Below, one piece after another: positions 3,921 through 58,155 of a DNA stretch of 64,000 nucleotides (position 1 is the stretch's first letter; each line of letters begins with the position of its first letter). A program made the position numbers and the translations under genes. A model generated the notes under the pieces. That model had not been told where the DNA came from. It made no database searches and saw only the letters and a list, made by a program, of their open reading frames with translations. Location of the stretch: NCBI GenBank assembly GCA_028716245.1, contig JAQUQW010000001.1:168793-232792 (forward strand). Reading direction: 5' to 3'. Origin of the DNA: Candidatus Omnitrophota bacterium. Lineage in GTDB: Bacteria; Omnitrophota; Gorgyraeia; Gygaellales; Profunditerraquicolaceae.

Positions 3921-4601
3921 ATGAAAACGCTGAGTAAAAGATACAAAGAATCAGTTAAGCAGGTAGAGAAAGATAAATTTTATCAATTAAAAGAGGCGGT
4001 AGCCATATTGAAGAAACTGCCTAAGCCAAAATTTGACGGTTCCGTCGACCTGCATTTTAATCTGGGCGTGGATACTAAAAAGAGCGATCAGATGATTCGC
4101 GGGACGGTTGTGCTTCCGCATGGGACAGGAAAAAAAGTGCGGGTTGCGGTATTCTGTAAAGGTGAACATGAGCGCCAGGCCAGGGAAGCAAAGGCGGATT
4201 ATGTCGGCGGCACGGAATTAATGGATAAAGTTGCCGCAGGGTTCCTTGATTTTGACTGCGCCATCGCCACTCCTGAAATGATGAAAGATTTAAGTAAGCT
4301 TGGCAAAATACTGGGCCCGCGCGGCCTGATGCCCAGCCCTAAGACCGGCACGGTGACCAATGATATTTCAAAAGCCATTGAAGATGTAAGGAAGGGCAAG
4401 GTTGAGTTTCGCGTGGATAAGCAGGGCGGGATGCATTTATCGATAGGCAAGATTTCTTTTGACGAAAACCAGATAAATGATAATGCTTCCAAAGTGATCG
4501 AGGCAGTCAACGAATCAAGGCCGGCATCGGTAAAAGGTAAATTTGTCAAGAGCCTGAGTATAACTGCTTCTATGAACCCGGGATTAAAGATCATCTGCTA
4601 A
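3921..4601 (+). CDS. rplA: 50S ribosomal protein L1
   Basis: Conserved L1 sequence downstream of rplK. Confidence 0.95.
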
Positions 4602-4676
4602 AACAAGAAAATTGCTTATAAAGTTTAATTTATTAAAAGCAATTTTAGAAGTGGTAAACAATTTAAGGTCTATACC

Positions 4677-5204
4677 ATGAAAAAAATCGGCCAATTAATC
4701 AAGGAAACTTCAGGGAATCGCATAAAGGATAGTTTTAAGTCATCCAAAGGATTGATTATTATTAAATACTCCGGAGTATCCAGCCCCGACATGAGTACCC
4801 TAAGGAAGTCCCTTAGAGGCTCAGGATCTGATCTTTTTGTAGTTAAAAACAGCATTGCCAAAAGAGCAATGAAAGAATTGGGCCTGGTTGATCTAGTTAA
4901 GTCGGTAGAGACGCCCTGCGGAATGATTTTCTTTAAGGATGAGCCGGTTGATACCTCTAGAATTTTGTGCGCTTTTCGTAAAGATCATGAAAAGCTTGTA
5001 TTAGAAGGCGGATTATTACAAGATAAATTATTAAGTTTAAAAGATATTGAAGTGATGAGCACCCTGCCTTCCAGAGAGGTTTTGCGGGCTAAGGTAGTGG
5101 TGACCTTGAATGCTCCGATTTCAAAATTGGCAATTGTTTTAAATCAGACGTTAAAGAAGTTCGTTTATTGTTTAGATCAAATTAAACAGAAAAAAACAAG
5201 TTAA
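4677..5204 (+). CDS. rplJ: 50S ribosomal protein L10
   Basis: L10 family sequence, upstream of rplL. Confidence 0.9.
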   Translation: MKKIGQLIKETSGNRIKDSFKSSKGLIIIKYSGVSSPDMSTLRKSLRGSGSDLFVVKNSIAKRAMKELGLVDLVKSVETPCGMIFFKDEPVDTSRILCAFRKDHEKLVLEGGLLQDKLLSLKDIEVMSTLPSREVLRAKVVVTLNAPISKLAIVLNQTLKKFVYCLDQIKQKKTS

Positions 5205-5761: not shown

Positions 5762-8700
5762 ATGATTAAACGAAAAAATTTTGCCAAGATAAAGGAAGTC
5801 TACGATTTACCTGATCTTTTAGATGTTCAGCTGGACACTTATCGTGAATTTCTGCAGATGGATCTGCCGGCCGGAGAAAAGAAAAATCAGGGCTTGCAGG
5901 AAGTTTTTGGTGAGATCTTTCCTATCGAAAACGCTGACCGTTCAGTGAAGCTGGAATTTATCAGTTATTCTTTAGGGAAACCCAAATACACAATGAGCGA
6001 ATCCAAAAATCGCTCATTAACTTATGCCGCCCCGTTAAAAGTAAAATTCCGCTTAACTACTCCCCGGGAAACAAAAGAGCAGGACGCTTATTTTGGGGAG
6101 ATTCCCTTGATGACCGAAACCGGGACTTTCATTATCAACGGTGATGAACGGGTGGTCGTTAGCCAGCTGCAACGATCTCCCGGAGTATCTTTTGAAGAAG
6201 AGCTGCATCCTACCGGAAAGAAGATTTTTTACGGCAGGGTTATTCCTTACCGCGGCGCTTGGTTAGAATTTAAATATGATCTTACCGAAACCATTACCGC
6301 TTATGTTGACCGCCGCAGGAATTTTCCCGCAACTCAAATTTTAAGGATCTTAGGTTTCTCCGAAGACAGCCAGATATTTGCCGCTTTTGGCAAAGAGCAT
6401 CCTGAAATTGTTAATACCCTGAAGAAAGATTACACTAAAAATAAAGAAGAAGCATACCTTGATTTCTACCGCAAAATGCGGCCGACGGAGCCGGTAACCA
6501 AAGAGGCTGCTGAAGGCTTGTTTTATAGATTATTTTTTGATCCGGCCAGATATGATTTAGAAAGAGCCGGCCGTTTTATTTTGAATCGTAAACTAGGGAT
6601 GGAGATGTCTTTAGATAAAAGGATACTTGATTCCGATACTGTAATTAAGGTGATCGAGTATTTAATTAAACTTAATGCCGGTTCGGGTAAAATTGATGAT
6701 ATTGACCATTTGGGAAACCGCCGCGTAAAGAGCGTCGGCGAGTTGGTTCAAAATCAGGTGCGTATCGGGTTATCCCGCGTTGAGCGTTCAATCAAAGAGA
6801 GGCTGAGTATTTTAGGTGAGTTTGATAATTTAAATGTGCATTACCTGATTAATTCCAAACTTTTAAGCAATCAAATCCGGGATTTCTTCGGGCGCAGCCA
6901 GTTATCCCAGTTTATGGATCAGATTAATCCTTTAGCCGAAATGACGCATAAGCGCCGTTTAAGCGCTTTAGGGCCGGGAGGGCTTTCCCGCGAAAGGGCG
7001 GGGTTTGAGGTCAGGGATATCCACCCTTCACATTATGGAAGGGTTTGTCCTATTGAGACACCGGAAGGCCCGAATATCGGTTTGATTGCCTCTTTGAGTT
7101 GTTTTGCGCGGATTAATTCTTTAGGCCTGATCGAGACTCCTTACCGTAAAGTAGAAGACGGCCGGGTGACTAAAAAATTTGAATATTTGACCGCGGACAT
7201 TGAAGAGGATAAGTTTATCGCCCAAGCTGATGTCCCGTTAGATAGCGAAGGGTATTTTGTGGATAAATTTGTTACCTGCCGCTATAAGGATGATTTCCCG
7301 AAAGTGCCGGCAAAAGATGTGCAGTATATGGATGTTTCGGCAAAACAGCTGGTTTCCGTCGCTGCTTCCCTGATTCCTTTCTTAGAGCACGATGATGCCA
7401 ACCGCGCGTTGATGGGTTCAAACATGCAAAGGCAGGCTGTTCCCTTGATGATTACCGAGGTACCTTTGGTTGGTACCGATATGGAAGCAAAAGTCGCCCA
7501 GGATTCCGGCACCGTAGTTATCGCCGAGGATTCCGGAAAAGTAACCAGCGTCGATGCTTCCGCCATTACCGTGGGTAAGAAAATTTATCATCTGAAGAAA
7601 TTTTTGCGTACTAATGCCGATACCTCGATAAATCAAAGGCCGCTGGTAAAATTAGGCGAGCGTATCGAAGCAGGCCAGGCGATTGCCGATGGTATTGCTA
7701 CCAAAGAAGGTGAATTGGCTTTAGGTAAGAATGTTTTAGTCTCTTTAATGCCCTGGAGAGGTTATAACTTTGAAGACGCTATTCTTATCAGCGAGAGATT
7801 GGTTAAGCAGGATTCTTTTACCTCGATCCATATCGAAGAATTTGAGATTGAAGCTGCCGAAACCCGGCTGGGCAATGAAGAGATTACCCGTGATATTCCT
7901 AATGTCAGTGAAGAAGCTTTAAGAAATCTTGATGAGGATGGGATTATTCGAGTCGGGGCGGAGGTTGGGGCCGGAGATATTCTGGTTGGCAAAATTACTC
8001 CCAAGACCGATTCTGAACCCAGCCCGGAAGAAAGATTGCTGCGCGCAATTTTCGGCGAGAAAGCCGGCGATGTCCGTGACACTTCTCTAATTGTCCCTCC
8101 CGGAGTTGAAGGCATAGTTATTGATGTTCATGTTTTTCAGCGCAAAGACCGCGGCCGTAAAACTAAAGAAGAAAAGACTAAAGAATTAGCAAAAATCCGC
8201 GAACTCAAAGCGTATTATAAGCAAGAGATCGAATTTTTACAGGCCGAGAAAACTTTACGTTTATCTCAGGTGTTGGGAATAGATAAGAAAAAAGTAGAGA
8301 AGTTTGATTTCAGCGATAATGAAGAGGCAAAGATTTTAGCTGCTTCCTTTGATGAGCAGATGCAGGAGTTGTTGGCTGAAGAGGAGCAAGAGATTGAAAA
8401 GGTGCGCCGCGGCGATGAATTACCCACGGGTATCTTAAAGAGGGTTGTAGTCTATGTGGCTACAAAACGCAAACTTTCCGAAGGTGATAAACTTGCCGGC
8501 CGGCACGGTAATAAGGGTGTGGTTGCCAGGATTATCCCTGAAGAAAATATGCCTTATATGCCTGACGGTACTCCGGTAGATGTGGTTTTGAATCCATTAG
8601 GCGTTCCTTCGCGTATGAACGTAGGCCAGATCTTGGAATGCCATTTAGGCTGGGCGGCCAAAGTTTTAGGGATAAATGTCAGTTGCCCTGTGTTTGACGG

Positions 8701-9166
8701 GGCCAAAGAGGCTGAAATCAAGGAGTTGCTTAAGAAGGCGGATTTGCCGGAAGACGGAAAGATTACCCTCTACGATGGTTATACCGGTGAGCCTTTTGAT
8801 CAGAAGGTTACCGTAGGGTACATGTACATTTTAAAACTTATCCATTTAGTTGATGAAAAAATTCATGCCCGCTCTATCGGGCCTTATTCTTTGGTTACGC
8901 AGCAGCCATTAGGCGGTAAAGCGCAATTTGGCGGCCAGAGATTAGGTGAAATGGAAGTTTGGGCTCTAGAAGCGTATGGAGCGGCATTCACTTTACAGGA
9001 GATGCTTACGGTTAAGAGTGATGATGTCAGCGGCAGGACGCGGATTTATGAAGCGATTGTTAAGGGTGAGCAGCGTTTAACTCACGGGACTCCGGAATCA
9101 TTTAATGTTCTAATCAAGGAATTGCAAGGCTTGTGTCTTGATATCAAGACAGAAAAGGCTAAATAA
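5762..9166 (+). CDS. rpoB: DNA-directed RNA polymerase subunit beta
   Basis: 1134 aa with canonical RpoB motifs ([23 protein letters not shown]). Confidence 0.97.
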
Positions 9167-12100
9167 TGGAAGAGATCGTATCGTTTGACAGTATTTCAAT
9201 TAAGATTGCCAGCCCTCAGGTAATTAAAGGATGGTCTAAGGGCGACGTCAAAAAAGCCGAAACGATTAATTACCGCACCCTCAAGCCGGAAAAAGACGGC
9301 CTGTTTTGTGAAAAGATTTTTGGCCCGGTGCGTGACTGGGAATGTAATTGCGGTAAATATAAAGGCATAAAATTCAAAGGTATTACCTGTGACCGTTGCG
9401 GAGTAACGGTTGATCGTTCAAGTGTCCGGCGCGAACGCATGGGGCATATTGATTTAGCTACGCCGGTTACGCATATCTGGTTTTTTAAGGCTGTGCCCAG
9501 CAGGATGAGCGCGCTCTTAGATATCGGCTTAAGGGATTTGGAAAGAATTATCTATTATGAGGAATATGTTGTAGTGGATCCCGGGAGTACGCCATTAAAG
9601 AAAAAAGAGCTGCTTACCGATGAACAATATCAGGAAGCGCTGAGCAAATATGGCGCAAGTTTCAAGGCCAAGATTGGCGCCGAGGCAATCAGCGAACTTT
9701 TGAAGGAATTAGACCTGGATGCGGTCTGCCGTAAATTCAGGAAAGATTTAGAGAAATCCAAAGACGTTTTAAATAACCGCAAAGCGATTAAGAGCTTAAA
9801 GATTGTCGAGGATTTTAAGAAAAGCGGGAATAAGCCGGAATGGATGATTTTAGAAATTGTTCCGGTAATCCCTCCGGATTTGCGCCCCCTGGTTCCTTTG
9901 GAGGGCGGAAGGTTTGCCACAAGCGATCTTAATGATTTATACCGCCGGGTAATTAACCGCAATAATCGTTTAAAGAAATTAATGGAGTTAAGTGCCCCTG
10001 AGATTATTATCCGCAATGAAAAGCGCATGCTTCAGGAAGCAGTGGATGCGCTTTTGGATAATGGCCGCCATGGTAAGCCGGTAAACGGCGCCAATAACCG
10101 TCCGTTGAAATCCCTTTCCGATATGCTTAAAGGAAAGCAGGGAAGGTTCCGCCAGAATCTTCTGGGTAAGCGCGTAGATTATTCGGGGCGTTCGGTAATT
10201 GTTGTGGGCCCGGAGTTAAAACTTCATGAATGCGGGCTTCCTAAACAGATGGCCCTGGAGTTATTTGAGCCGTTTATTATTAAGAAATTAAGAGAAAAAG
10301 GGTTTGTACATACGATCAAAGGCGCCCGCCGAATGGTTGAGCGCGGTAAGATCGAAGTCTGGGATATTTTGGATGAAGTGATTAAAGACCATCCGATCAT
10401 GCTCAACCGTGCCCCGACCCTGCACCGTTTAGGTATTCAGGCATTCCAGCCGTTGTTAATCGAAGGAAAATCAATAAAAATACATCCATTAGTTTGTACT
10501 GCTTTTAACGCCGACTTTGACGGGGATCAGATGGCTGTGCATGTGCCTTTATCCTTGGAATCACAATTAGAGACCAAGGTGCTCATTATGGCCATTAATA
10601 ACATATTTTCTCCTGCTGATGGCCGGCCGGTAATTTCTCCTACTCAGGATATAATTTTGGGCCTGGCATATTTGAGCCGGGAAAAAGCAGGCGCGCAAGG
10701 CGAGGGAAAAATCTTCTCCAGCCCTGATGAAGTTTTAATCGCTTATGATGATAAGGCAGTGGAGTTACACGCTAAAATCAAGATTTACGTTCATAGCTTA
10801 TATAATTTTGACCAGAAAAAGGCCATTGACGCAAAGCAGATGATCACGACTACTGTCGGCCGGGTATTATTCAATCAGGCCTTGCCTCCCGAGTTTGGGT
10901 TTGTCAATTGTGATTTAAATAAAGGTAAGGTCAGCGATGTGGTGGTTAGCTGCTATAAGAGGTTTGGCCACACTACGACCATTAAACTGCTCGATGATAT
11001 TAAAAGATTAGGTTTTGAGATGGGCACCCTGGGCGGTATCTCTATTGGAATTGATGACATGACTGTTCCCGTAGATAAGCCCCAAGTTTTAAAAGAATCT
11101 AAAGAAGAGGTAGCTAAGGTTGAAGATCAATACCGTAAAGGTATCATTACTGACAGCGAGCGTAAATCCAAGGTAATTGATATCTGGACGCACGCGACGG
11201 ATAAAATTTCGGATCTTTTGTTTAAGGGTATGGATTCTTTTAACCCGATCTTTATGATGGCAGACAGCGGGGCGCGCGGTTCGCGCCTGCAGGTCAGGCA
11301 GCTTGCCGGTATGCGCGGCCTGATGGCTAAGCCCAGCGGGGAAATCATTGAGAACCCGATTACGGCAAATTTCCGCGAAGGCTTGAATGTTTTAGAGTAT
11401 TTTATTTCTACCCACGGCGCGCGAAAAGGCTTGGCTGATACTGCGCTTAAAACCGCGGATGCAGGTTATTTAACCCGCAGGCTGGTCGATGTTGCTCAAG
11501 AGGTGATTATTTGCGAGGAGGATTGCGGGACGCTTAATGGTATTACGGTTTCGGCGATTACTGAAGGTGACGAAGAGGTGGTCGGGCTTAAAGACCGGAT
11601 CATCGGAAGAGTTGCTTTGGACAATGTGGTTGATATTATTACCGATGAGGTTATTGTTGAGCAGGGAAGCGAAATAACCGAGGAGAAGACCGAACAGATT
11701 GAAAGATTAGGAATTGAAAAAATCCGTATTCGCAGCGTTTTAACCTGTGAATCCGGAAGGGGAGTTTGCGCTAAATGTTATGGCCGCAATCTTTCTACCG
11801 GCAGGTTAATCGAATTAGGAGAAGCTGTCGGGGTTGTGGCTGCCCAGAGTATCGGTGAGCCCGGTACGCAGTTGACCATGAGGACATTCCATATCGGAGG
11901 TACCGCCTCAAGGACTATTGAGCAGTCATTTATTAAAGCCAAGAATGAAGGTATAATCAAATATCATAATTTAAGGGTTACGCTTAAGAATAAAGAGTAT
12001 GTCGTCTTAAACAGAAATGGGGCAATCAGTATTAACGATGCCCAGGGCCGGGAACTAGAGCGTTATCCGCTTCCGCAAGGCGCGTTCATTCTTATTGCCG

Positions 12101-13200
12101 ACGGAGAAAAGGTTACCAAGGGGGTATCTTTTGTGCATTGGGATCCTTATACCTTACCGGTGCTTACTGAAGTTGGCGGTATAGTGCGTTTTGAAGATTT
12201 ACGCGAAAATGTTACGATGCGTGAAGAGATTAATCCGGTCACAAAATTAGCTGAGCGCGTAGTGGTTGAACATAAGCCGGAGTATCATCCTCAGGTAGTT
12301 ATCCTGGATGATAAAAAAGAAGTTTTAGGGATATATCCTATTCCTATCGGCGCCCACATTATTGTTCGCGATGGCGAACGGGTAGGCGGAGGAGACCTCC
12401 TGGCAAAAATTCCGCGTACCGTTGTTAAAACCCGCGATATTACCGGCGGCCTTCCGCGCGTTGCCGAGCTTTTTGAAGCCAGGCGCCCGAAGGATCCGGC
12501 CATTATCAGTGAAATTGACGGGTTTGTTGAGTTTGGGGAAACCAAGAAAAATCAGCGCGTAATCATTATAAAATCGGCAACCGGCATGGCCAGGGAATAT
12601 ATTATTCCCCATGGTAAACATCCGAATGTTTACAAAGGGGATAAAGTTACCGCCGGCCAGCAGCTTACCGACGGTCCGGTAGTTTTGCAGGATATTTTAA
12701 GTGTCTGCGGCGATAAGGTTTTGCAGGAGTACTTGGTAAATGAAGTGCAGGAGGTTTATCGCTTGCAGGGAGTGCGGATTAATGATAAGCATATCGAAGT
12801 AATTATCCGCCAGATGCTCAAAAAAGTAAGGGTTGAGGATCCGGGTGATACGGAGTTTTTGGCTACCCAGCAGGTAGATAAATGGGTATTCCAAAAAGAG
12901 AATACCCGGGTGATCAAAAAAGGCGGCAAGCCGGCTCAGGCAACGCCCCTGCTTTTGGGCATTACCAAGGCTTCGCTTACTACCGAGAGTTTTATCTCCG
13001 CTGCCAGTTTTCAGGAAACTACCCGCGTTCTAACCGAGGCGGCAACCAGCGGTAAACGGGATGAATTATTTGGTTTAAAAGAAAATGTTATCGTTGGGCA
13101 CTTGATTCCGGCTGGTACCGGATTTAGGGCCCATCGCGATATTGAAGTAGTAAAAGTAGGAGCTGAAAACAGCGAGGAAAAGAAAGAGAAAAAGGAATAA
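9166..13200 (+). CDS. rpoC: DNA-directed RNA polymerase subunit beta'
   Basis: 1344 aa; NADFDGD catalytic motif and Zn-binding CxxC cluster near the N-terminus. Confidence 0.97.
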
Positions 13201-48451: not shown

Positions 48452-50551
48452 ATGGGTTTTGATCTGTTGTTATTGGCGCCGGTTGGTTCGATATTAGCGT
48501 TAAGTTTTGCTTTTTATCTGGCCTTGAGTATTTTAAAAATGGATGAGGGTACGGATAAAATGAAGGAGATCGCCCACGCGGTGCGCGTTGGCGCCCAGGC
48601 CTATTTAAAAAGGCAGTATCTGGGTATTTCGATGTTTTTTATTGTGGTATTTTTTATCCTTCTGGCCATGGCCCTGAAGAATTATTTGGTAATTTTTGTG
48701 CCGTTTGCTTTTTTAACCGGAGGTTTCTTTTCAGGTTTGTCCGGTTTTATCGGGATGACTATTGCCACCCAGTCCTCTAACCGCACTGCCCAAGCCGCGT
48801 CTAAGAGTTTGAATTCCGGCCTGCGGGTTGCTTTTTCAAGCGGAGCAGTCATGGGTCTTACCGTTGTCGGTTTAGGGCTATTGGATTTAAGTATCTGGTA
48901 TTATTTCCTAAATTGGTATTATTCTTGCCATCCCATCCCGTTGGGAACGGATAAAATCGCGGCAATTACTTCCACGATGCTTTGTTTTGGCATGGGGGCC
49001 AGTTCGATGGCGCTTTTTGCCAGGGTGGGTGGAGGTATTTTTACTAAAGCCTCGGATGTCGGAGCGGATTTAGTCGGTAAGGTTGAAGCAGGAATTCCTG
49101 AGGATGATCCGCGTAACCCGGCAGTTATCGCTGATAATGTCGGTGATAATGTCGGCGATGTCGCGGGTATGGGCGCTGACCTTTATGAATCTTATGTTGG
49201 TTCAATTGTTGCCACTTCAGCTTTAGGTGTTGCTGCCGGCCTTGGTGTTGCCGGGGTAACCGTGCCGATGGTTATGGCCGCGGTAGGAGTTGTTTCATCG
49301 GTTATCGGGACTTTCTTTGTAAAAAGCGGAGAGCAGGCCAGCCAAAAAGTTCTCTTAGCCGCTTTACGTAAAGGGGTCTTTACCAGTTCATTTCTGGTTG
49401 CGATAATCTCATTTTTTCTGGTTAAGGCAACATTAGGCGCGCAGCATTTAGGCGTTTATTGGTCAGTCTTGGCAGGTTTAGTTGCCGGAGTATTGATCGG
49501 CCTGTGCACGGAATATTATACTTCCAGCGGCTTTAAGCCGACCAAATCTATTGCTGATGCCTCTTTAACCGGCCCGGCAACTGTAATTATCGGGGGTATT
49601 GCGGTAGGGATGATGTCTACCGCCATTCCGGTAATTATCGTATGCATTGCTATTTTAATAAGTTTTTATTTATCCGGCGGGGCCGCGAATTTTAACGCCG
49701 GCCTTTACGGTATCGCCATTTCAGCCGTGGGCATGCTTTCGACTTTAGGTATAACTTTGGCTACTGATGCTTATGGGCCGGTTGCGGATAATGCCGGAGG
49801 AAACGCGGAGATGTCAAAACTGCCTCCTGAGGTAAGAAAAAGAACCGATGCCTTGGATGCTTTAGGTAATACGACTGCGGCAACCGGTAAAGGTTTTGCC
49901 ATTGGTTCGGCAGCCTTAACCGCATTAGCCTTGATTGCCGCGTATAAAGATCAGGTTTTGCTTTTTGGTAAAGATATTAATGCCAGTATGATGAATCCTA
50001 CGGTATTAGTAGGTTTGTTTTTAGGAGGAATGCTGCCATTTTTATTCTGTTCTATGACCATGCGCGCAGTGGGAAGAGCAGCGGGTAAGATTGTCGTGGA
50101 AGTACGCCGGCAGTTTAAGGAGATTATTGGCCTGATGGAAGGCACAGCTAAACCTGATTACGCGCGCTGTGTAAATATTGCCACTGCGGCAGCACAAAAA
50201 GAAATGATCGCTCCTTCACTTTTGGCAATCGTGGCCCCCATAGGCGTAGGACTGTTTATAGGTATTGATGCGGTTGCCGGGCTTCTGGTAGGGGCAACTG
50301 TTACCGGCTTTGTTTTAGCGGTGATGATGGCTAATTCCGGTGGCGCCTGGGATAATGCCAAGAAGTTTGTGGAAGAAGGGCATCATGGCGGTAAAGGGTC
50401 GCTAGCGCATAAAGCCACAGTGGTTGGCGATACAGTGGGTGATCCGTTTAAAGATACTTCCGGGCCGAGCTTAAATATTTTAATCAAGCTGATGTCCATG
50501 GTTTCTATTGTTTTTGCCTCATTTATTATTAAAAATACCTTATTTAAGTAA
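48452..50551 (+). CDS. hppA: membrane-bound proton/sodium-translocating pyrophosphatase
   Basis: [27 protein letters not shown] and [10 protein letters not shown] motifs; 699 aa, multi-TM. Confidence 0.93.
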
Positions 50552-50554
50552 TCA

Positions 50555-50598
50555 AAAGACCCTGTTTCCAGGCTAATCGGGAAACAGGGTCTTTTTTA
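50555..50598 (+). terminator. rho-independent terminator after hppA
   Basis: GACCCTGTTTCC-aggctaatcg-GGAAACAGGGTC followed by TTTTTTAT. Confidence 0.85.
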
Positions 50599-50611: not shown

Positions 50612-50638
50612 TTGCCAAGGTGTTTTTAGTGCTATAAT
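50612..50638 (+). promoter_or_regulatory. promoter with extended -10 (TGcTATAAT) for the ECF sigma gene
   Basis: TTGCCA, 15-nt spacer, TGCTATAAT (50630-50638). Places the TSS ~50645, so the sigma mRNA may be near-leaderless. Confidence 0.5.
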
Positions 50639-50645
50639 TATAGCC

Positions 50646-51245
50646 ATGGATGATTTGGAGTTTGTCCAAGGCTGCCTCAAAGGGAACAAGCAATCCTGGT
50701 CTGAATTCATCTCGCGTTATTCCCGCCTAATCTATAACTATATCTATAGTGTTTTAGCTGTCAGAGGACATACTGCTCCTTTGGAACAGGTCGAGGATAT
50801 TTTCCAAGAAATATTTCATGCCTTAATCAAGGATAACTATAAAAAATTATCCACTTATCAAGCTAAAAATGGCTGTTCTTTAGCCAGTTGGCTCAGGCAG
50901 GTCACCATTAACTTTACCATTGATTATTTACGCAAACTTAAGCCTGCTGTATCTCTTGATGCGGAGAATGAGGATGGTTTTGCTTTAGGGGATACCCTCA
51001 AAGATCTAACGGCCGGGGCAATTGAATTCCTTAATGATCAGGATCGCCGTAAGACCCTCCAGGAGTGTATCAGCTTGCTTGAGTCCGATGAACAGTTTTT
51101 TCTCGAACTATTTTTGAATCAGGGGCTAAGCCTGGAGGAGATCAAGGGTTATTATAAAATTAACCGTGGAGCAGTGGATATGCGCAAGAGCAGGATATTC
51201 CAGAAACTGCAGGATTGTTTTAAAAAGAAAGGTTTTTTAGGTTAG
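50646..51245 (+). CDS. ECF (sigma-70 family group 4) RNA polymerase sigma factor
   Basis: Region 2 (YNYIYSVL...DIFQEIFHAL) and region 4 HTH (LSLEEIKGYYKINRGAVDMRKSR). Start 50646 is preferred over the track's 50598, which lies upstream of the promoter and overlaps the terminator. Confidence 0.75.
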   Translation: MDDLEFVQGCLKGNKQSWSEFISRYSRLIYNYIYSVLAVRGHTAPLEQVEDIFQEIFHALIKDNYKKLSTYQAKNGCSLASWLRQVTINFTIDYLRKLKPAVSLDAENEDGFALGDTLKDLTAGAIEFLNDQDRRKTLQECISLLESDEQFFLELFLNQGLSLEEIKGYYKINRGAVDMRKSRIFQKLQDCFKKKGFLG

Positions 51246-51286
51246 ATTTCTTAAGATTCTACGTCTATTGAGTCAGGAGAGGAGCA

Positions 51287-51994
51287 ATGCTTAACTATTT
51301 AGAGAAAATAACAAAAATTATTTACCGGCAGTGGAAAAAAGGTAGGAGTTTTAAGGCAAAGGGGCATCCCAGCGAAGAGGATCTGGCTTGTTTTCTTGAG
51401 GGTAAGTTTTCCGTTCAAGATAAAGAAGCTGTCCAGAAACACCTGCTTAGTTGTGATATTTGCGCCGAATATTTAAGTGTCCCGCTTAAGATACAGCCGC
51501 ATTTAGGCGTGGATGTCCCGGCGCAACTGCTAGAGAAGGTTAAAAAACTGCTTGGGCTGGAAACCAGTGAAAATTTATTAGAGATATTTCTTAAGCTTAA
51601 AGATAAAGCTATGGAGATTATTCAGACTACCGGAGACGTGTTGGTTGGCCAGGAGTTGATTCCGGCTCCGGTTTTACGCAGCCGGAAAATCGATGAATTT
51701 AAGGAAGAGGTAAGTATTTTAAAGGATTTGCAGCAGATTAGAATATTGGCTAAGATTCAGAATAGGGACACTAAGAGTTTTAATCTTACAATTACCGTTA
51801 AGGATAAAAAAAGCCAGAAGGTGAGTAAAAATTTACGGATTACTCTTATAAGAGACGGAGTTGAGTTAGAATCATATATTACTGATTCAGCCGGAAGCAG
51901 TTTTTTTGAAAATATCCTGCCGGGTAACTATTCGGTAGAAGTCAGCCGGGAAGACCAAAAGGAAGCGGTAATTGATTTAAAAGTTCAAGCCTAA
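51287..51994 (+). CDS. zinc-finger (HxxxCxxC, zf-HC2) anti-sigma factor with C-terminal carboxypeptidase-regulatory-like beta-sandwich domain
   Basis: HLLSCDIC motif; no obvious TM; C-terminus resembles a CarboxypepD_reg domain. Confidence 0.6.
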   Translation: MLNYLEKITKIIYRQWKKGRSFKAKGHPSEEDLACFLEGKFSVQDKEAVQKHLLSCDICAEYLSVPLKIQPHLGVDVPAQLLEKVKKLLGLETSENLLEIFLKLKDKAMEIIQTTGDVLVGQELIPAPVLRSRKIDEFKEEVSILKDLQQIRILAKIQNRDTKSFNLTITVKDKKSQKVSKNLRITLIRDGVELESYITDSAGSSFFENILPGNYSVEVSREDQKEAVIDLKVQA

Positions 51995-51998
51995 GCTT

Positions 51999-54194
51999 AT
52001 GCCTTATGCGCAAGCCCTAATCTTAGAAGTTTTTAAGCAGGATAACGCGCTTAAGATGGGCTTATTTGACCAGAGCCAAACCACCCCCACTTTACGCCAT
52101 TACAGCCAAGTGGGGGTTTCTTTTTCAGAATTAAGGCAATTAAGCACGGAGATGGTGGGTATTTTAAACTGCCTGCCTAAAGATCAATCATCTAAACATG
52201 ATCAGCTAAGAAGCCTGCAAAAGATCGGCCGCCTGCTTTGGGACCATCTGCTTAGCCGTTCGATTAAGGAGAAACTAAAAAATACCGGTTCTTGCATATT
52301 AACCCTTTCTTTGGATGAAGAACTGATTTATATACCATGGGAATTGGTTTTTGACGGGGTGGATTTTTTCTGCTTGAAATTCAGCTTAGGCAGGTTAGTG
52401 CGCAGTAAAGGAGATTCCACATTGCTACAGTATCGTAATTTATCGGATAGTTTAAGGATGTTGATTTTGGCCAATCCGAACAACGATTTAAAATCCGCTT
52501 ATACCGAAGGTTTAAATATCAAAAACCAATTTAGCCATAAAACCAAAAAGGTGCAGGTTGATTTTAAATCCACCAATATTGACAAAAACTATGTGCGGAA
52601 GAATCTCTGTGATTATGATATTGTGCATTTTGCCGGCCACTGCGAGTTTGACCGCAAAGAGGATCAAGAGAACGGCTGGGTTTTAAGCGACGGAATTTTT
52701 AAGGTTGAGGATATTCTTCGGATGGGCCAGAGTTGCAGTTTACCGGCCCTGATATTCTCAAACACCTGCCATTCCGCCCAGGTAAGGCCTACTTTGATCG
52801 ACTCGGAGTATCAAAGAGACAATTATGGGATGGCCAGCGCCTTTTTATTTGCCGGAGTAAGGCATTATATCGGATCCATCCGTAAAATTGAAGATAATGC
52901 CAGCCTGGTATTTGCCCGGGAATTTTACGCAAAACTTATTTCAGGGGTAAGCGTGGGAGAGTCTTTACGTTTATCTAAATTAAAGCTGGTAAAGGAATAT
53001 AGTTTAAGCAGTTTACATTGGGTAAACTATTTACTTTATGGCGATCCTGGATTTAATTTTTTTAAAATCCCACGGCACAGAGAAACCAGGCGTAAAACAG
53101 GCGCTTTTTATAAAAAGCTTATAATTGGAATTGGTTTGCCTGTTTTTTTAATTTGCGCCAGTATCCTTCTGGCATTTTGGCTGCCTAAGATCAATCCGCA
53201 AAAGCTATACTTGTTTCTTAATTCCGAAGCCCAGTTCCGTAAAGGCAATAATCAGGCGGCCATTGTTTTAGGGGAGCAGGTAATTAAGAAGGACCAGGAT
53301 TTTCTCGCGGTTTATCCGGTGATTGCCAATGCCTACCAGCGCCTTGGCAATAAAGATCAGGCGTTGAAATATTATTTTGATTATGTGCTTAAGAGTGAAA
53401 AGCTGAATGATAAAGCCCACCTTGCGCAGGCCTATATAAAATTGGGGTGGTTTTATCAGCTGGACGGACAGTATGTCCGCGCCCAAGAGTTATATGAGAA
53501 GGCGATCAATCTAAGCCGCCAACTAAAGGATAAGAAAAATGAAGCAGTGGCTTTAAGGAAATTAGCCGTCTGGCATATTGATAAGAAAAATTACGGGCAG
53601 GCCCTGGATCTGTTAACCAAGAGCGCTTCCATTAACCTGGAGAGCCCTGATAATTCGGGAAGCGCTAAGAACCTGGCAAGCGATTATTTTGATATCGGGC
53701 TGGTTTTTGCCAATAAAAATGATTATGCGGCAGCCAAGGATTTTTACGAGAAAAGCCTTAAGATATTTCAACGGCTAAAGCTAAATAATGAATTAAGCGA
53801 TTGTTATTTTAATTTGGGGGAGATCTATTTTTACGAGAAACAGTATCAGAAGGCGCTGGATTATTACTTTAAAGGCTTGAAATTAGACCAGGAGCAAAAT
53901 AATAGAGTTAATTTAGCCAGCGGCTATAATATGATCGGAGAACTTTATTTGGAAATTGATGATTCGACAAGAGCCCAGAGTTATTTTAAGCAAGCGGTTG
54001 AGTCATCCGAAGAAATCAACAGCCGGATGGATTTAGCCAATGCCAGTTATAATCTTGGGTTGTTATATAAGAAACAGGGAAGAAAGAATCTGGCCAGGGA
54101 ATATTGGCGTAAGGCGCAGGAAATCTATCGCTTAGTCGACCCGGATAGATACCAGGAAACCAAAACCCAATTGTTGGAGTTGAATAGTTTATAA
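51999..54194 (+). CDS. CHAT-domain (caspase-like) protein with one TM segment and C-terminal TPR repeats
   Basis: CHAT His/Cys dyad context (DIVHFAGHCEF ... LIFSNTCHSAQ), TM LIIGIGLPVFLICASILLAFWL, then multiple TPR-like repeats. Confidence 0.7.
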   Translation: MPYAQALILEVFKQDNALKMGLFDQSQTTPTLRHYSQVGVSFSELRQLSTEMVGILNCLPKDQSSKHDQLRSLQKIGRLLWDHLLSRSIKEKLKNTGSCILTLSLDEELIYIPWELVFDGVDFFCLKFSLGRLVRSKGDSTLLQYRNLSDSLRMLILANPNNDLKSAYTEGLNIKNQFSHKTKKVQVDFKSTNIDKNYVRKNLCDYDIVHFAGHCEFDRKEDQENGWVLSDGIFKVEDILRMGQSCSLPALIFSNTCHSAQVRPTLIDSEYQRDNYGMASAFLFAGVRHYIGSIRKIEDNASLVFAREFYAKLISGVSVGESLRLSKLKLVKEYSLSSLHWVNYLLYGDPGFNFFKIPRHRETRRKTGAFYKKLIIGIGLPVFLICASILLAFWLPKINPQKLYLFLNSEAQFRKGNNQAAIVLGEQVIKKDQDFLAVYPVIANAYQRLGNKDQALKYYFDYVLKSEKLNDKAHLAQAYIKLGWFYQLDGQYVRAQELYEKAINLSRQLKDKKNEAVALRKLAVWHIDKKNYGQALDLLTKSASINLESPDNSGSAKNLASDYFDIGLVFANKNDYAAAKDFYEKSLKIFQRLKLNNELSDCYFNLGEIYFYEKQYQKALDYYFKGLKLDQEQNNRVNLASGYNMIGELYLEIDDSTRAQSYFKQAVESSEEINSRMDLANASYNLGLLYKKQGRKNLAREYWRKAQEIYRLVDPDRYQETKTQLLELNSL

Positions 54195-54204: not shown

Positions 54205-54268
54205 AGGGAACGTTTCTATTTTTTTTATAGCTTCAGCTCTTAAAAAATAGAAACGTTCCCTGGTTTTT
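54205..54268 (+). terminator. 20-bp perfect inverted repeat (bidirectional terminator-like)
   Basis: AGGGAACGTTTCTATTTTTT - 17-nt loop - AAAAAATAGAAACGTTCCCT followed by GGTTTTT. Confidence 0.7.
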
Positions 54269-54282: not shown

Positions 54283-54334
54283 TTGACAATTATTATTTTT
54301 TAGTTATACTCTACTAAGTTGATAGAGTTAGTAG
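54283..54334 (+). promoter_or_regulatory. sigma70 promoter plus inverted-repeat operator upstream of the rrf2-family gene
   Basis: TTGACA (54283-54288), 16-nt spacer, TATACT (54305-54310). Inverted repeat CTACTAA-n10-TTAGTAG (54311-54334) lies between the -10 and the RBS. Confidence 0.55.
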
Positions 54335-54346: not shown

Positions 54347-54787
54347 ATGAATATAACTTATAAAGGTGATTACGCGTTAAAAGCGCTTTTGGATTTAGCG
54401 GTGCATTATGACTTAGGATTATCAACGATACACGATATTGCCAAGCGTATCAATGCCCCGGTTAAGTTTCTTGAACAGGTCCTTCTGGATTTAAAAAAGG
54501 GCGGTTTTGTGGAAAGCCGGCGCGGTAATGTCGGTGGTTATTTGCTCTCCCGGCCTCCGGCTAAAATAGTGTTGGGAGATGTGGTTAGATTTATTGACGG
54601 CCCGACAGAGCCGATTGCCTGTGTTGGAAGTGATTATTCAGGTTGTACCGATATATATAGGTGTAGTTTTCGCAGGATCTGGCAGGATGTAGCCAAAGCT
54701 ACTTCGGGGATAATCGATAATATAACCTTTGAAGACTTGGTAAATAAGCTAGAAGTGAACAAAGAAGCGCTGGTTTATCAGATTTAA
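54347..54787 (+). CDS. Rrf2-family transcriptional regulator (IscR/CymR-like; 3 Cys, possible Fe-S ligands)
   Basis: N-terminal wHTH (YALKALLDLA...STIHDIAKRINAP) and CVGSDYSGCTDIYRC cysteine cluster. Confidence 0.8.
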   Translation: MNITYKGDYALKALLDLAVHYDLGLSTIHDIAKRINAPVKFLEQVLLDLKKGGFVESRRGNVGGYLLSRPPAKIVLGDVVRFIDGPTEPIACVGSDYSGCTDIYRCSFRRIWQDVAKATSGIIDNITFEDLVNKLEVNKEALVYQI

Positions 54788-54794
54788 ATAAGCG

Positions 54795-54983
54795 TTGATG
54801 AAAATGGAAAATATAAAAATAGGCAGTGATACGGTTATTAAAAACATTAAAGAGGCGGTTTTGGGCCTTGATTATGGTGACGTCCTGATCAAAGTGCATA
54901 ATTCCAGGATTGTGCAGATTGAGGTGACTCAAAGGAAGCGTTTTGACGATGCCCATAAAATTGAAGGAGGTGGCGGAATATAG
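54795..54983 (+). CDS. DUF2292 (YezD-like) small protein
   Basis: 62 aa; the GDVLIKVHNSRIVQIE motif resembles YezD. This family is commonly co-located with sulfur assimilation genes. Confidence 0.6.
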   Translation: MMKMENIKIGSDTVIKNIKEAVLGLDYGDVLIKVHNSRIVQIEVTQRKRFDDAHKIEGGGGI

Positions 54984-55041
54984 CTTTAGGTATTATTAGT
55001 AAGCTTAATAAGAGATGGTGAAATTATTATTAATTCAGTAG

Positions 55042-55092
55042 CACCCCGCGCTTATAAGGAATTGCGCGGGTGTGCCCTTGTGGGCAAGGAGG
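55042..55092 (+). repeat. GC-hairpin repeat element (full copy) upstream of cysH
   Basis: caCCCCGCGC-ttataaggaatt-GCGCGGG-tgtGCCCttgtGGGC-AAGGAGG, then ATG at 55099. Confidence 0.85.
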
Positions 55093-55098
55093 AATAAA

Positions 55099-55803
55099 AT
55101 GAGTATTTTGGATAACAAGGATGATTTAAAGGAATTGGTGGAAACGCTGAATTTTAAGGAGAAGGTAGAAAGGTCAAAACAATTGATCAAGGAGGCATAT
55201 AAGCGTTACGGAGATTCTTTGGTAGTCGCGAATAGTTTAGGCAAGGATTCAGTGGCAGTATGGGATTTGGCAAAAAAGGTAAACCCGAAGATCCGCGGAT
55301 TTATCGTTACCACCAGGTTTAAGCCTGCGGAAACAATTAAATTTATGAAAGAAGAGGTAGCGCGGTATCCTGAATTAAAAGTGTATCAAAATGATTCAGA
55401 GATTCCCGAGAGGCTATATGAAACTGAGCCGGATAAATGTTGCGATATTTTAAAAGTTGAACCGGTGAAAAGATCCATTGAAGAGATGCATGTGAAATGC
55501 TGGGTTACGGGATTGCGCTGCACAGAGGGCCGTACGCGAACTGATTTTAAAGAAGTGGAAGAAAGGGATAAGGGCCTAATTAAGCTTAATCCGATTCTGA
55601 TCTGGAAGGAGCGCGAAGTCTGGCAGTATTTAGCGCTTTATCGGGTTCCGGTGAATCCGCTCTATGGAGAAGGATACCGTTCACTGGGATGCGCGCCTTG
55701 CACCAAGATTACCAATGACGATAATGAACGCGCCGGACGTTGGATCGGCACCAGCAAATGCGGCGGAGAATGCGGGATACATACCCGGCCGCTTAAAAAG
55801 TAA
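55099..55803 (+). CDS. cysH: adenylyl-sulfate/phosphoadenylyl-sulfate reductase (CysH family; CC...CxxC Fe-S type)
   Basis: SLGKDS PP-loop-like motif, CC pair, SLGCAPCT, C-terminal ECGIH. True start is 55099 after AGGAGG. Confidence 0.8.
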   Translation: MSILDNKDDLKELVETLNFKEKVERSKQLIKEAYKRYGDSLVVANSLGKDSVAVWDLAKKVNPKIRGFIVTTRFKPAETIKFMKEEVARYPELKVYQNDSEIPERLYETEPDKCCDILKVEPVKRSIEEMHVKCWVTGLRCTEGRTRTDFKEVEERDKGLIKLNPILIWKEREVWQYLALYRVPVNPLYGEGYRSLGCAPCTKITNDDNERAGRWIGTSKCGGECGIHTRPLKK

Positions 55804-55925
55804 AGGAGGTGAGAGGGAGCCAGTTGTAATTAAAAAGCTAAGCGGATAACCGTAAAGGCAATATATAAAAATAATTTTTGACCGACCAGTCAACTGGAAG
55901 AAGAAAGAAATAAAAGGAGCAAGAA

Positions 55926-57206
55926 ATGAGAGTTCTTCTAGTTGTAGGTTGGTTGTTAGCAGCGCAGCTGGCTTCAGCAACCTTAGCATTTGCTGTTGAA
56001 ACCGATGTTGATAAGTTGCTTGAATTTCTGATTAAGGAAAAAGTCCTGACTCAAGAAAAGGCAACGGAATTCAGGGCGGATTTAGCGATAAAGAAGCAGG
56101 AAGAAAAACAACCCGCAGCGGTTCCTGATTGGGTCCAGAACATTAAACTTAAAGGGGATGTCAGGACAAGATATGAATGGGATAAGAATAAAAACCAGCA
56201 GGATAATTCAAGAGCAAGGATTAGAGTTAGGATAGGAGTAGAAGCTAAGGTTAACAATAAACTAAAGGCGGGTATTGGTATTTCAACCGGAAACACTAAT
56301 GATCCGCGTTCCAGGGATATTACGCTGGGTAATTCTTCTACGGCTAACACGCCAGGCTCGCCCAAAGGTATTATCCTGGATTATGCATATGGGCAATATA
56401 CGCCATTCAACTGGTTAACCTTAACTGCCGGTAAGTTCCAGAACGTTTTGTGGCAGCCCTTTGATGCGTTATGGGATAATGATATTACTCCGGAAGGATT
56501 CGGTGTTAACTTAAGCCATAAGTTTAACTCAAAGCTGGATTTCTTCTTGAATAATTTATTTTACATTTTAAAGAATGATTCCAGGCTCGATAAACAGGCT
56601 TTTCTGGAAGCTTTACAATCCGGGATAAATTGGGCTGTAAATGGTAAAGTCAAACTGAAGAGCGCTCTTACTTACTATCTTTTTCAAGGCGTAAAGGGCG
56701 CGCAGAAGTTTAGCGATAGTAAAAGCGGCACAGCTCCTTACGCATCAAGCGGCAATACCTTGGTTGGCGGAACATATAGGTATAATTATAACTCCATTCA
56801 ACCGACCGTTGAACTCTCATTTAAAGATCCATTCCAAGGATTTTTGCCTTACGCGGCTATTTTCGGAGACTACATTTATAATGTCTCTAGCGTAGGAAAC
56901 GGAGCAGGTGGTTTTGATCTGGGTTTGAAATTCGGAGCGGAAAAAGTCAGTGACTGGAAACAATGGCAGGGCAAACTGGTATATTCAAAATTAGGCAGAG
57001 ATAGCCGGCTGGATATATTAACCGATAATAATCGGTATGGTGGAAACACCAATTCCCAGGCTATTGAGGGTATTTTGGAGTTTGGATTAGGTAAGAATAC
57101 GACTCTAGTACTGGATTATTATTCTTCACAGAGTCTCACTAAGGCCAGCTCAACCGGTTATGCTCCAGAGCAGCTTTTTCAGGCTGACTGGAATTTGAAA
57201 TTTTAA
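55926..57206 (+). CDS. outer-membrane beta-barrel porin, possibly phosphate-selective (OprO/P-like)
   Basis: Signal peptide; alternating amphipathic pattern; C-terminal WNLKF; immediately upstream of pstSCAB. Confidence 0.55.
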   Translation: MRVLLVVGWLLAAQLASATLAFAVETDVDKLLEFLIKEKVLTQEKATEFRADLAIKKQEEKQPAAVPDWVQNIKLKGDVRTRYEWDKNKNQQDNSRARIRVRIGVEAKVNNKLKAGIGISTGNTNDPRSRDITLGNSSTANTPGSPKGIILDYAYGQYTPFNWLTLTAGKFQNVLWQPFDALWDNDITPEGFGVNLSHKFNSKLDFFLNNLFYILKNDSRLDKQAFLEALQSGINWAVNGKVKLKSALTYYLFQGVKGAQKFSDSKSGTAPYASSGNTLVGGTYRYNYNSIQPTVELSFKDPFQGFLPYAAIFGDYIYNVSSVGNGAGGFDLGLKFGAEKVSDWKQWQGKLVYSKLGRDSRLDILTDNNRYGGNTNSQAIEGILEFGLGKNTTLVLDYYSSQSLTKASSTGYAPEQLFQADWNLKF

Positions 57207-57216
57207 GGGAGGAAAA

Positions 57217-58155
57217 ATGAAAAAATTAATTATTATCGCGTTAGCATTAAGTCTTTTGAAGATTTCAAGTAATAATGTTTTTGCTCAAGGAAGTGAACTC
57301 CAGGGTACCCTGACACTGTCAGGCGCCTGGGCAATTTATCCTACGGCAGTGGCTTGGGCAGAGGGTTTTCAGAAGAAATACCCTAAAGTAAAAATCGATG
57401 TTTCAGCCGGAGGCGCAGGGAAAGGCGCTACTGATGCCATTACCGGTTTAGTTGATATCGGAATGGTTTCACGCGAGCCGGATCCCGCAGAGATTAAAAA
57501 AGGAATAACGCCGGTTTATATTCTTCATGACGCGGTTTTTGCTGTAATTAATGAAAAAAATCCCGCACTTGAGAGTATCCTTAAAAAGGGGGTTAATAAA
57601 GAAAACTTTATTGATTCCTGGGTTAATGGATCAATCGCTACCTGGGATAAGGTAGCAGCTAGCAAAGTGAATAAACCGATTCATCTTTTTACGCGCTCTG
57701 ATTCCTGCGGAGCTGCCCAAAGTTGGGCGGGATACTTGGGTAAAAAGCAGGAGGATTTAAAAGGGATCGGAGTTTATGGCGATCCGGGGATTTTGGAAGC
57801 GGTAAAAAAAGATCCAATCGGCATAGGCTACAATAATTTCAGTTATGTATTCTCCCGTGATGGCGCATTAGCTAACGGTATAAGATTAGTTCCGATAGAT
57901 TCAAATGAGAATGGTAAAGCCGATGCCGATGAAATATATACAAACCGTGATGAGGCAGTAAAGGCGATAAGAGCGGGTAGGTATCCGGCGACACGAAGGA
58001 ATTATTTTTTTGTAAAAGGCAAACCTGCCGGTTTAGTCAGGGAATTTATTCTATTTGCTCTTTCTGAAGAAGGGGTTAAAATAGTAGATGAAGTTGGGGC
58101 AAGCCTCTCTTTAGCTACGCAGGAGCGGGAAAAGGTCTTAAAAAGCTTAGAGTAA
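57217..58155 (+). CDS. pstS: phosphate ABC transporter substrate-binding protein
   Basis: Signal peptide; PBP-like PstS family motifs (SGAWAIYP, SAGGAGKG). Confidence 0.8.
   Translation: MKKLIIIALALSLLKISSNNVFAQGSELQGTLTLSGAWAIYPTAVAWAEGFQKKYPKVKIDVSAGGAGKGATDAITGLVDIGMVSREPDPAEIKKGITPVYILHDAVFAVINEKNPALESILKKGVNKENFIDSWVNGSIATWDKVAASKVNKPIHLFTRSDSCGAAQSWAGYLGKKQEDLKGIGVYGDPGILEAVKKDPIGIGYNNFSYVFSRDGALANGIRLVPIDSNENGKADADEIYTNRDEAVKAIRAGRYPATRRNYFFVKGKPAGLVREFILFALSEEGVKIVDEVGASLSLATQEREKVLKSLE

Follow-up and report, generated by a model that had tools for sequence, protein, structure and literature searches.

A conserved ECF sigma–ZAS protein–CHAT protease module in Omnitrophota: a candidate membrane-receptor switch for sigma factor release

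A 64,000-nucleotide stretch of DNA from a Candidatus Omnitrophota bacterium (contig JAQUQW010000001.1, positions 168,793 to 232,792; hereafter the window) contains a module of three genes, encoding a sigma factor of the extracytoplasmic function (ECF) type, a soluble anti-sigma-like protein of the zinc-associated anti-sigma (ZAS) type, and a protein in which a caspase-like CHAT module is joined by a single transmembrane (TM) helix to a tetratricopeptide repeat (TPR) array (Table 1). The best reading of this module, held at a probability of about 50%, is a receptor-protease that frees the sigma factor by cleaving its anti-sigma. According to this scheme, the ZAS N-terminal domain of the 235-residue anti-sigma would keep the sigma inactive in the cytoplasm, and the C-terminal beta-sandwich of the same protein would dock onto CHAT on the cytoplasmic side of the membrane protein. 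The extracytoplasmic TPR array, or a different domain in its place elsewhere, would sense a ligand or the state of the envelope, and the signal, passing through the TM helix, would turn on the His214/Cys257 dyad. CHAT would then cut the anti-sigma within its conserved 116-135 segment, most likely beside Arg131, setting the sigma free, perhaps after further degradation of the fragment, and turning on its regulon. What we infer is that the anti-sigma binds the sigma, that its beta-sandwich docks, and that cleavage takes place and where; signal and regulon are likewise inferred. Gene content, domains, conserved catalytic and ligand residues, predicted topology and the conservation of the trio come from computational analysis of sequences and predicted models.

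The three genes are kept together over a wide evolutionary range. A scan with a CHAT-module profile, covering a single genome from each species, returned at least 553 relatives, and the best 80 loci of that scan are all Omnitrophota-like, with 51-90% identity. Family-specific hidden Markov models for the sigma and the anti-sigma were run on the loci with enough upstream DNA (n=77). In 76 of these, the sigma, anti-sigma and CHAT genes follow each other in this order, adjacent and on the same strand, and in the 77th (L087) the anti-sigma gene is broken by an assembly gap. Eight distant relatives of the CHAT protein, sharing only 34-40% identity, are all accompanied by a sigma homologue and by a ZAS-type protein of ~230 residues, and six of the eight have both genes directly upstream of CHAT. 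They derive from the chromosome of Desulfonema magnum (CP061800), from metagenome-assembled genomes (MAGs) of Nitrospirota, Thermodesulfobacteriota and Myxococcales, and from four further metagenome or MAG contigs. At one locus (L088), the sigma gene is located ~3.7 kb upstream, with several small open reading frames (ORFs) and a NosD/beta-helix protein in between. At another (L093), a gene for a 908-residue VIT/VWA protein (1302-4028), which may be an additional component of the pathway, sits between the ZAS and CHAT genes. The distant relatives have unrelated flanking genes. The trio occurs in at least five phylum-level groups, and no evaluable locus had a member of this CHAT subfamily lacking the sigma/anti-sigma pair. 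The co-occurrence in relatives anticipated by an earlier sequence-only reading of this DNA is therefore borne out by both sets of loci. Many MAGs that carry modules of 55-80% identity to the Omnitrophota one (L009, L013, L015, L027 and others) are titled 'uncultured Planctomycetales bacterium', and one (L063) is titled Margulisiibacteriota; these titles probably reflect problems of taxonomic labelling or binning in the source records.

The part of the membrane protein beyond the TM helix is exchanged between lineages. In the distant relatives it is not a TPR array: one protein carries DUF4384 and another two copies of F5_F8_type_C, and the C-terminal regions of the Desulfonema magnum and Nitrospirota proteins have no confident Pfam match. 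One further relative (L091:5001-6861, a gene running off the contig end) has an adenylate/guanylate-cyclase domain fused to the N-terminal side of CHAT. The comparison of sequences indicates that the conserved core is composed of the sigma, the ZAS/beta-sandwich protein and the CHAT module, and that the accessory domains are interchangeable. Two further genes accompany these loci. A CsgG/LpoB-like protein is encoded just 5' of the sigma gene in L091, and in L088 the gene immediately after CHAT–DUF4384 codes for a second CHAT protein, of 832 residues and with the classical TPR-then-CHAT order (L088:6812-9310).

The CHAT module of the window protein has the features of a caspase-like protease. 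PF12770 matches residues 74-349 over its entire profile (1-289 of 289) with E=3.2e-27 and 96.2 bits, far above the cut-off of 24. No substitution of His214 or Cys257 occurs in two alignments of diverse homologues, one with 11 and the other with 60 sequences. In the profile alignment, the GH…aC pattern pairs with cHG…AC of the Csx29 chains 8d9f_A and 7x8a_D (residues 584-670 of the latter), in which the aligned His and Cys are presumably the catalytic H585 and C627. The dyad is in register with those of characterised CHAT proteases, which is the alignment that the sequence-only reading had set beforehand as a test of its assignment. The AlphaFold2 (AF2) model is confident, with a mean predicted local distance difference test score (pLDDT) of 91; its best fold match in the PDB outside TPR proteins is again Csx29 (8eex_B, E=1.1e-8). 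The sequence likeness to all solved CHAT proteins, DdvA included, is weak (E=0.0015-0.15); the module represents a distinct CHAT subfamily. Endopeptidase activity is predicted for it.

The TM helix has a hydropathy of 2.71 and is part of a modelled helix spanning residues 365-397. Averaged over 83 triads, 5.8 Lys and Arg residues are present in the 15 positions on the N-terminal side of the helix versus 1.6 in the 15 positions on its C-terminal side, and there is no signal-like segment at the N-terminus. Because of this charge bias and the lack of a signal-like N-terminus, the CHAT module is predicted to be located in the cytoplasm, together with the anti-sigma, and the TPR array outside. The cyclase fusion described above fits this arrangement, since guanylate-cyclase domains of that type are cytoplasmic. 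The TPR region is matched by TPR_12 (E=1e-32) as well as by TPR_1, TPR_2 and TPR_8. It is modelled with pLDDT above 90, and its top fold matches are the TPR domains of LGN/Pins. The extracytoplasmic array is presumed to be a sensor or ligand-binding domain.

The second protein belongs to a large family. When 1.84 billion representative proteins were searched exhaustively with its profile, 141 clusters (defined at 50% identity) had E <= 1e-30 and 644 reached E <= 1e-10. The best matches listed are nearly all 221-248 residues long and aligned from end to end, and the records of a Candidatus Omnitrophica MAG contain an identical sequence. The protein harbors an H52-x3-C56-x2-C59 motif, and these three residues are invariant in the family (127-128 of 128 representatives, whose identity has a median of 35%). 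Position 27, located 25 residues N-terminal of H52 and separated from it by 24 residues, is His or Cys in 127 of the 128. Together they give the canonical spacing of ZAS ligands, that is, H-x3-C-x2-C with a His or Cys ~23-26 residues upstream, and His27 is most likely the fourth zinc ligand. With a best 19-residue hydropathy of 0.85, the protein contains no TM segment. Of 54 close homologues, 36 match zf-HC2 at E <= 0.1, the strongest with E=8e-5. Certain relatives bear the NCBI name 'anti-sigma factor' or 'zf-HC2' or a precomputed PF13490 match. In the AF2 model (mean pLDDT 61.7), helices are formed by residues 30-68 and the beta-sandwich, spanning ~141-235, has pLDDT 77-89. Fold searches with this model gave just generic Ig-like beta-sandwiches (E >= 1e-3), and a PDB profile search with the family found no anti-sigma chain at E <= 10. 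Binding and inhibition of the cognate sigma are predicted because the gene is located directly 3' of the sigma gene at all loci and the N-terminal domain is modelled as helical. The sequence-only reading had described this protein as a ZAS anti-sigma without a TM segment and with a CarboxypepD_reg-like sandwich, a description that holds, with the Pfam scores given below.

RsrA and ChrR are redox-sensing anti-sigmas of the ZAS type, with an H/C…H-x3-C-x2-C pattern at ~25-residue spacing in a small helical sigma-binding domain; redox sensing is not a property of all ZAS proteins. The window protein differs from RsrA and ChrR by an added conserved linker with an invariant Arg, an Ig-like beta-sandwich and a constant CHAT partner. 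We consider it unlikely that the sigma is freed by oxidation of the ZAS zinc-thiolate centre, as in RsrA and ChrR, with the linker and beta-sandwich serving as a securin-like pseudosubstrate or adaptor that keeps CHAT inactive or fixes its location, the true substrates of CHAT being other proteins. The invariant canonical ligand pattern agrees with such a redox switch, as do the co-variation of the linker with sigma rather than CHAT (see below) and the precedent of separase, which is kept inactive by its bound inhibitor securin (PMC11506125). The switch would leave unexplained the constant pairing with a receptor-like membrane protease whose outer domain is swappable, and the trio is kept at a locus (L089) where the ZAS-type protein has lost the two ZAS cysteines.

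The first gene encodes a sigma of the ECF (group 4) sigma-70 family, as judged from its profile matches to TIGR02937 sigma70-ECF (68.9 bits, cut-off 42.9) and Sigma70_r2 (33.2 bits, cut-off 24); its sequence matches in the PDB are RpoE, SigW and SigH. Both terminators that bracket the module are strong hairpins. The upstream one has -25.6 kcal/mol (z=-6.8) and the downstream one -32.7 kcal/mol (z=-9.2), and in neither case was any of 200 shuffled sequences as stable. The upstream terminator shields the module from transcription of the preceding H+-pyrophosphatase (H+-PPase) gene, whose product was identified by Pfam profile search (H_PPase, E=7e-271). Hence the outline given by the sequence-only reading stands: three consecutive genes between terminators, the last of them a 20-bp palindrome, coding for a group-4 sigma, an anti-sigma and a 731-residue protein with CHAT, one TM helix and a TPR array.

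The dedicated extended -10 promoter in that outline was retained with corrections. The sequence TGcTATAAT (50630-50638) ends 7 nucleotides before the sigma ATG, which is at 50646 and not at 50598/50612 as first assigned, and the -35 element is doubtful because the TTGCCA is only 15 nucleotides from the -10 hexamer. A -10 hexamer with five or more of six matches, ending 4-10 nucleotides before the sigma start, is present in 72 of 79 related loci (a non-redundant set), compared with 4.5% of random positions, and 63 of those 72 also have the TG. A Shine-Dalgarno (SD)-like sequence precedes the sigma gene at one of the 79 loci and the anti-sigma gene at 73. The operon promoter is probably of the housekeeping, extended -10 type, and its distance from the ATG implies an mRNA that is probably leaderless and probably transcribed constitutively. 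The Rrf2 gene at 54347 has an ordinary leader with a purine-rich SD, so the apparently leaderless sigma mRNA is not merely a genome-wide habit. In most loci the anti-sigma and CHAT genes are just -4 to +12 nucleotides apart, a spacing that suggests translational coupling, and all three genes appear to be co-transcribed.

These features bear on whether the CHAT–TPR protein could instead be an effector under sigma control, that is, merely a member of the regulon such as an envelope-associated processing enzyme. ECF sigmas commonly share an operon with their own targets and autoregulate, and the apparent co-transcription of the trio would suit this arrangement. We nevertheless regard it as improbable. 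The TGnTATAAT housekeeping promoter abuts the sigma ATG at the 72 loci, and inspection by eye of the regions upstream of ~80 loci, made without a formal motif search, revealed no ECF-like -35/-10 pair of an autoregulatory promoter, but only the extended -10 element of housekeeping type and terminators upstream. The gap before the CHAT gene is too short for an internal promoter, the CHAT module is predicted to be cytoplasmic, and its subfamily was not encountered without the sigma/anti-sigma pair. In some lineages small ORFs follow the CHAT gene, and the regions 5' of them, inspected for a target promoter, were uninformative. The sequence-only reading had proposed a regulated-proteolysis switch, with either CHAT cleaving the anti-sigma or the sigma controlling a CHAT effector. 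Its first version is favoured by the housekeeping promoter, the shared predicted cytoplasmic location and the short intergenic gap, with cleavage itself an inferred step, and its second version is disfavoured.

The presumed target of the CHAT protease is the region linking the two domains of the anti-sigma. Residues 96-140, including the 116-135 segment with Arg131, are the slowest-evolving part of the protein. AF2 models residues 65-139, the conserved stretch among them, with low confidence, suggesting that the Arg131 segment is possibly flexible; a segment that is conserved yet not confidently folded is what a partner-bound motif would be expected to look like. An exploratory mirror-tree analysis is in line with docking of the beta-sandwich onto CHAT, since the beta-sandwich tracks CHAT over sigma (partial r 0.56 versus 0.20). 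These partial correlations ignore phylogeny and the distances of the N-terminal domain are near saturation, so that they give a hint only. CHAT could also degrade or process the sigma directly, or cleave itself and so set free a soluble domain, with the ZAS protein as an ordinary partner, an arrangement we judge very improbable. It has precedents in the direct proteolytic control of sigma proposed for ECF54 (PMC8999054) and in the self-cleavage in trans proposed for DdvA (PMC11506125). Unlike in ECF54, a well-conserved anti-sigma is always present here, and the invariant Arg and the conserved segment are both in this protein; the juxtamembrane segment of the CHAT protein (residues 360-371) is modelled with low confidence.

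Several observations weigh against cleavage of a ZAS anti-sigma as the release step. In the mirror-tree analysis, region 96-140 tracks sigma over CHAT (0.51 versus 0.22), and this segment may be a sigma-binding element instead of, or besides, a cleavage site; cutting it would still free the sigma even if it mainly binds sigma. The choice of Arg131 as the cut site is a guess, since the specificities of CHAT proteases vary, being Met or Leu for craspases and Arg for separase (PMC11506125). On the window proteins themselves, three profile matches fall below their cut-offs: Sigma70_r4 on the sigma (18.9 bits, cut-off 24.1), zf-HC2 (PF13490) on the anti-sigma (E=0.075, 13.6 bits, cut-off 22.2) and CarboxypepD_reg on the anti-sigma (E=4.5e-5, 24.2 bits, below the Pfam cut-off). 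Finally, the L089 homologue of the anti-sigma (4279-5004) has lost the two ZAS cysteines, NHMLARDEEES replacing H-x3-C-x2-C. Its linker motif (LLPAGVFRN) and its beta-sandwich persist, as does the trio, so that zinc binding is dispensable in the family.

The module occupies a syntenic chromosomal position in many Omnitrophota. The H+-PPase gene is located upstream of sigma at 46 of 79 loci, with a median gap of ~120 nucleotides and including loci of only ~55% identity; in the window the terminator lies between the two genes. Rrf2 is found downstream at 18 of 79 loci. At roughly half of the loci (37 of 79, or about 37-40 in all), a secreted BNR/Sortilin-Vps10-like protein of ~520 residues is encoded ~0.9 kb downstream of CHAT (for example L005:9532-11115 and L006:9280-10851), sometimes preceded by small ORFs (84 and 136 residues). 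This gene, a candidate member of the regulon, is absent from the window, where Rrf2 takes its place. In other lineages the neighbours of the trio are unrelated.

A Pfam check of the window ORFs covered 43.5 to 58 kb. The Rrf2 gene has a strong sigma-70-type promoter of its own, and from 54347 to 58155 it is followed by genes for a PAPS-reductase-domain protein, a Porin_5 protein and a phosphate-binding-type periplasmic binding protein. In close relatives, Rrf2 is followed by pyridoxal phosphate (PLP)-dependent enzymes of Cys/Met metabolism and a PALP (CysK-like) enzyme, which suggests a sulfur/cysteine regulon beside the module. Positions 1-45000 of the window are core-genome-like, with all large ORFs on the + strand and a positive GC skew throughout. 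The sizes of the 1134- and 1344-residue ORFs (5762-13200) suggest rpoB/rpoC, and ORFs of the sizes of translation factors and ribosomal proteins follow.

This setting is relevant to the idea that the trio is an anti-phage module, akin to craspase, CalpL/T/S or DdvA/S but independent of CRISPR, whose sigma turns on immune genes in response to a signal derived from phage. All characterised pairings of a sigma with CHAT or SAVED-Lon proteases are linked to defence (PMC10028731, PMC11506125, 10.1101/2023.06.23.546230), and the sigma has a weak match to the NCBIfam family CAS_III-E_sigma (28.4 bits, cut-off 100). Such a role appears improbable to us in view of the surroundings. PADLOC-DB 2.0, run on the three proteins, gave only matches to the TPR region, the generic PDLC01169 and PDC-S39. 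The window has no CRISPR-like array, and no cas families are present among the called neighbours or the 14 most frequent flank-gene clusters of the related loci. The neighbours are housekeeping in character (H+-PPase, Rrf2, PAPS reductase, porin, phosphate-binding protein, and the ribosomal and RNA polymerase operons), and the syntenic site behind H+-PPase looks vertically inherited rather than like a mobile island. Assignment to a specific known defence system was rejected, as none was supported by PADLOC, by the search for CRISPR arrays or by the neighbouring genes.

Table 1 Features of the sigma–ZAS–CHAT module and its borders in the window.
Feature	Position	Strand	Details
H+-PPase gene	48452-50551		
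Upstream intrinsic terminator (of the H+-PPase gene)	50554-50598	+	16-bp stem, stem 50554-50595, then U-run
Extended -10 promoter	50612-50638	+	TG 50630-31, TATAAT 50633-38, weak -35-like TTGCCA 50612-17
ECF (group 4) sigma gene	50646-51245	+	199 aa; ATG start as gene callers place it in relatives
Soluble ZAS-type anti-sigma-like gene	51287-51994	+	235 aa
Zinc-ligand candidates H27, H52, C56, C59	51365-51463		
Conserved segment of anti-sigma, residues 116-135	51632-51691	+	GDVLVGQELIPAPVLRSRKI; contains Arg131
Invariant Arg131	51677-51679	+	128 representatives
Ig-like beta-sandwich, residues 141-235	51707-51991	+	predicted, AF2
CHAT–TM–TPR gene	51999-54194	+	731 aa
CHAT module, residues 1-350	51999-53048	+	clan CD, caspase-like
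Predicted catalytic His214	52638-52640	+	invariant
Predicted catalytic Cys257	52767-52769	+	invariant
TM helix, residues ~374-392	53118-53174	+	after basic stretch RHRETRRKTGAFYKK
TPR array, residues 400-731	53196-54191	+	~16 helices; Pfam, AF2
Operon-end intrinsic terminator	54205-54268	+	perfect 20-bp stem 54205-54224/54242-54261, then U-run
Promoter of the Rrf2 gene	54283-54310		TTGACA-16-TATACT

Two routes of proteolytic ECF sigma release are known. In one, site-1 and site-2 proteases cut an anti-sigma that spans the membrane; the other, of recent discovery, uses CRISPR-linked cytosolic proteases (craspase, CalpL). Release by a receptor-protease, if true, would add a third form, in which the protease itself is the membrane receptor and the anti-sigma is soluble. 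It would also make a part in everyday signal transduction, outside immunity, plausible for the caspase-like (CHAT) proteases of bacteria, and the compact three-gene cassette could yield a modular, engineerable switch from membrane to transcription. A wider picture, put forward tentatively and at somewhat less than even odds, is that of a transmembrane receptor-caspase with a swappable outer domain, activating an ECF sigma in one step, by a cut in the soluble ZAS anti-sigma at or close to Arg131, without intramembrane proteolysis. The same picture has the module vertically inherited, non-defensive and a possible source of the CHAT/sigma arms linked to CRISPR. The trio is present in every evaluable Omnitrophota locus retrieved, in a phylum with almost no experimental genetics. 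Given craspase and DdvA, a specialist would not be astonished by such a module; the family is nonetheless large, uncharacterised and not linked to defence. No publication describing the sigma–ZAS–CHAT trio was found in the openly readable literature, subscription-only papers being outside this scope.

Among known systems, the craspase pathway offers a close parallel in logic. There, Csx29 cleaves Csx30, releasing CASP-sigma (PMC10028731). In both systems an ECF-type sigma goes with a CHAT protease and with an inhibitor of two domains, whose cleavage lifts, or here would lift, inhibition; in the craspase inhibitor, the N-terminal part binds sigma and the C-terminal domain is recognised by CHAT, which cuts a loop (PMC10028731). 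The window locus has no Cas7-11, CRISPR RNA or CRISPR array, and its CHAT protein has the order CHAT–TM–TPR, whereas Csx29 is TPR–CHAT. It is membrane-anchored, and its input would be an extracytoplasmic signal instead of a target RNA. The inhibitors, compared by size and domain make-up, are a 235-residue ZAS/beta-sandwich protein here and the 565-residue Csx30 there, and sequence similarity is weak for both CHAT (E=0.018) and sigma (28 bits against a cut-off of 100). Membership in the Type III-E craspase systems was rejected on the basis of the array-free window, the lack of cas neighbours and the sub-cut-off CAS_III-E_sigma score.

DdvA of Myxococcus xanthus is a ZAS domain fused to TPR-CHAT (PMC11506125). 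The DdvS/DdvA pair resembles the trio in having an ECF sigma and a CHCC-type zinc anti-sigma domain linked to TPR and CHAT across the membrane, with CHAT proteolysis as the proposed trigger (PMC11506125, PMC6061681). DdvA is a single polypeptide with the order ZAS–TM–periplasmic TPR-CHAT, whereas the ZAS and CHAT parts are separate proteins here. Its CHAT domain is periplasmic, whereas in the window protein CHAT is predicted to be cytoplasmic with the TPR array outside. Intramembrane cleavage by RseP is proposed for DdvA, a step that would be unneeded with a soluble anti-sigma. Moreover, DdvA-like proteins are reported from Myxococcota and one Comamonas, compared with at least five phylum-level groups for the trio, and the sequence match to 8rot has E=0.15. 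DdvA-type membership was rejected on the separate gene products, the CHAT–TM–TPR order and the predicted cytoplasmic CHAT.

CalpL cleaves CalpT (10.1101/2023.06.23.546230). In CalpL–CalpT–CalpS of type III CRISPR, a signal-activated protease cuts a soluble anti-sigma and frees an ECF-like sigma (10.1101/2024.05.08.593097; 10.1101/2023.06.23.546230), which is the likeness to the present scheme. CalpL differs in being a cytosolic, CRISPR-associated Lon-type protease whose SAVED sensor responds to cyclic oligoadenylates, and in having no CHAT, TM or TPR region. With RseA/DegS/RseP and RsiW, the module would share the sequence of extracytoplasmic signal, anti-sigma proteolysis and ECF sigma release (PMC10028731, PMC11506125). 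In canonical regulated intramembrane proteolysis the anti-sigma spans the membrane and receives site-1 and then site-2 cuts, whereas here the protease would be the spanning protein and a single cytoplasmic cut would suffice.

For ECF54, another ECF sigma, proteolytic control has likewise been proposed, and a CHAT-domain protein is a conserved neighbour; carboxypeptidase and subtilase domains also occur in its gene context (PMC8999054; PMC7826278). In these descriptions ECF54 is actinobacterial and has no anti-sigma, whereas the trio always includes a ZAS protein and its hosts are Omnitrophota, Desulfobacterota, Nitrospirota and Myxococcota. Identity with ECF54 was set aside on these two departures from its published description, taxon and anti-sigma (PMC8999054, PMC7826278). 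The sequence-only reading could match the module to no described pathway. That judgement stands as regards membership and gives way as regards kinship: the module belongs to none of craspase, CalpL/T/S and DdvA/DdvS, and these are close systems, to which the mechanism proposed here bears a resemblance.

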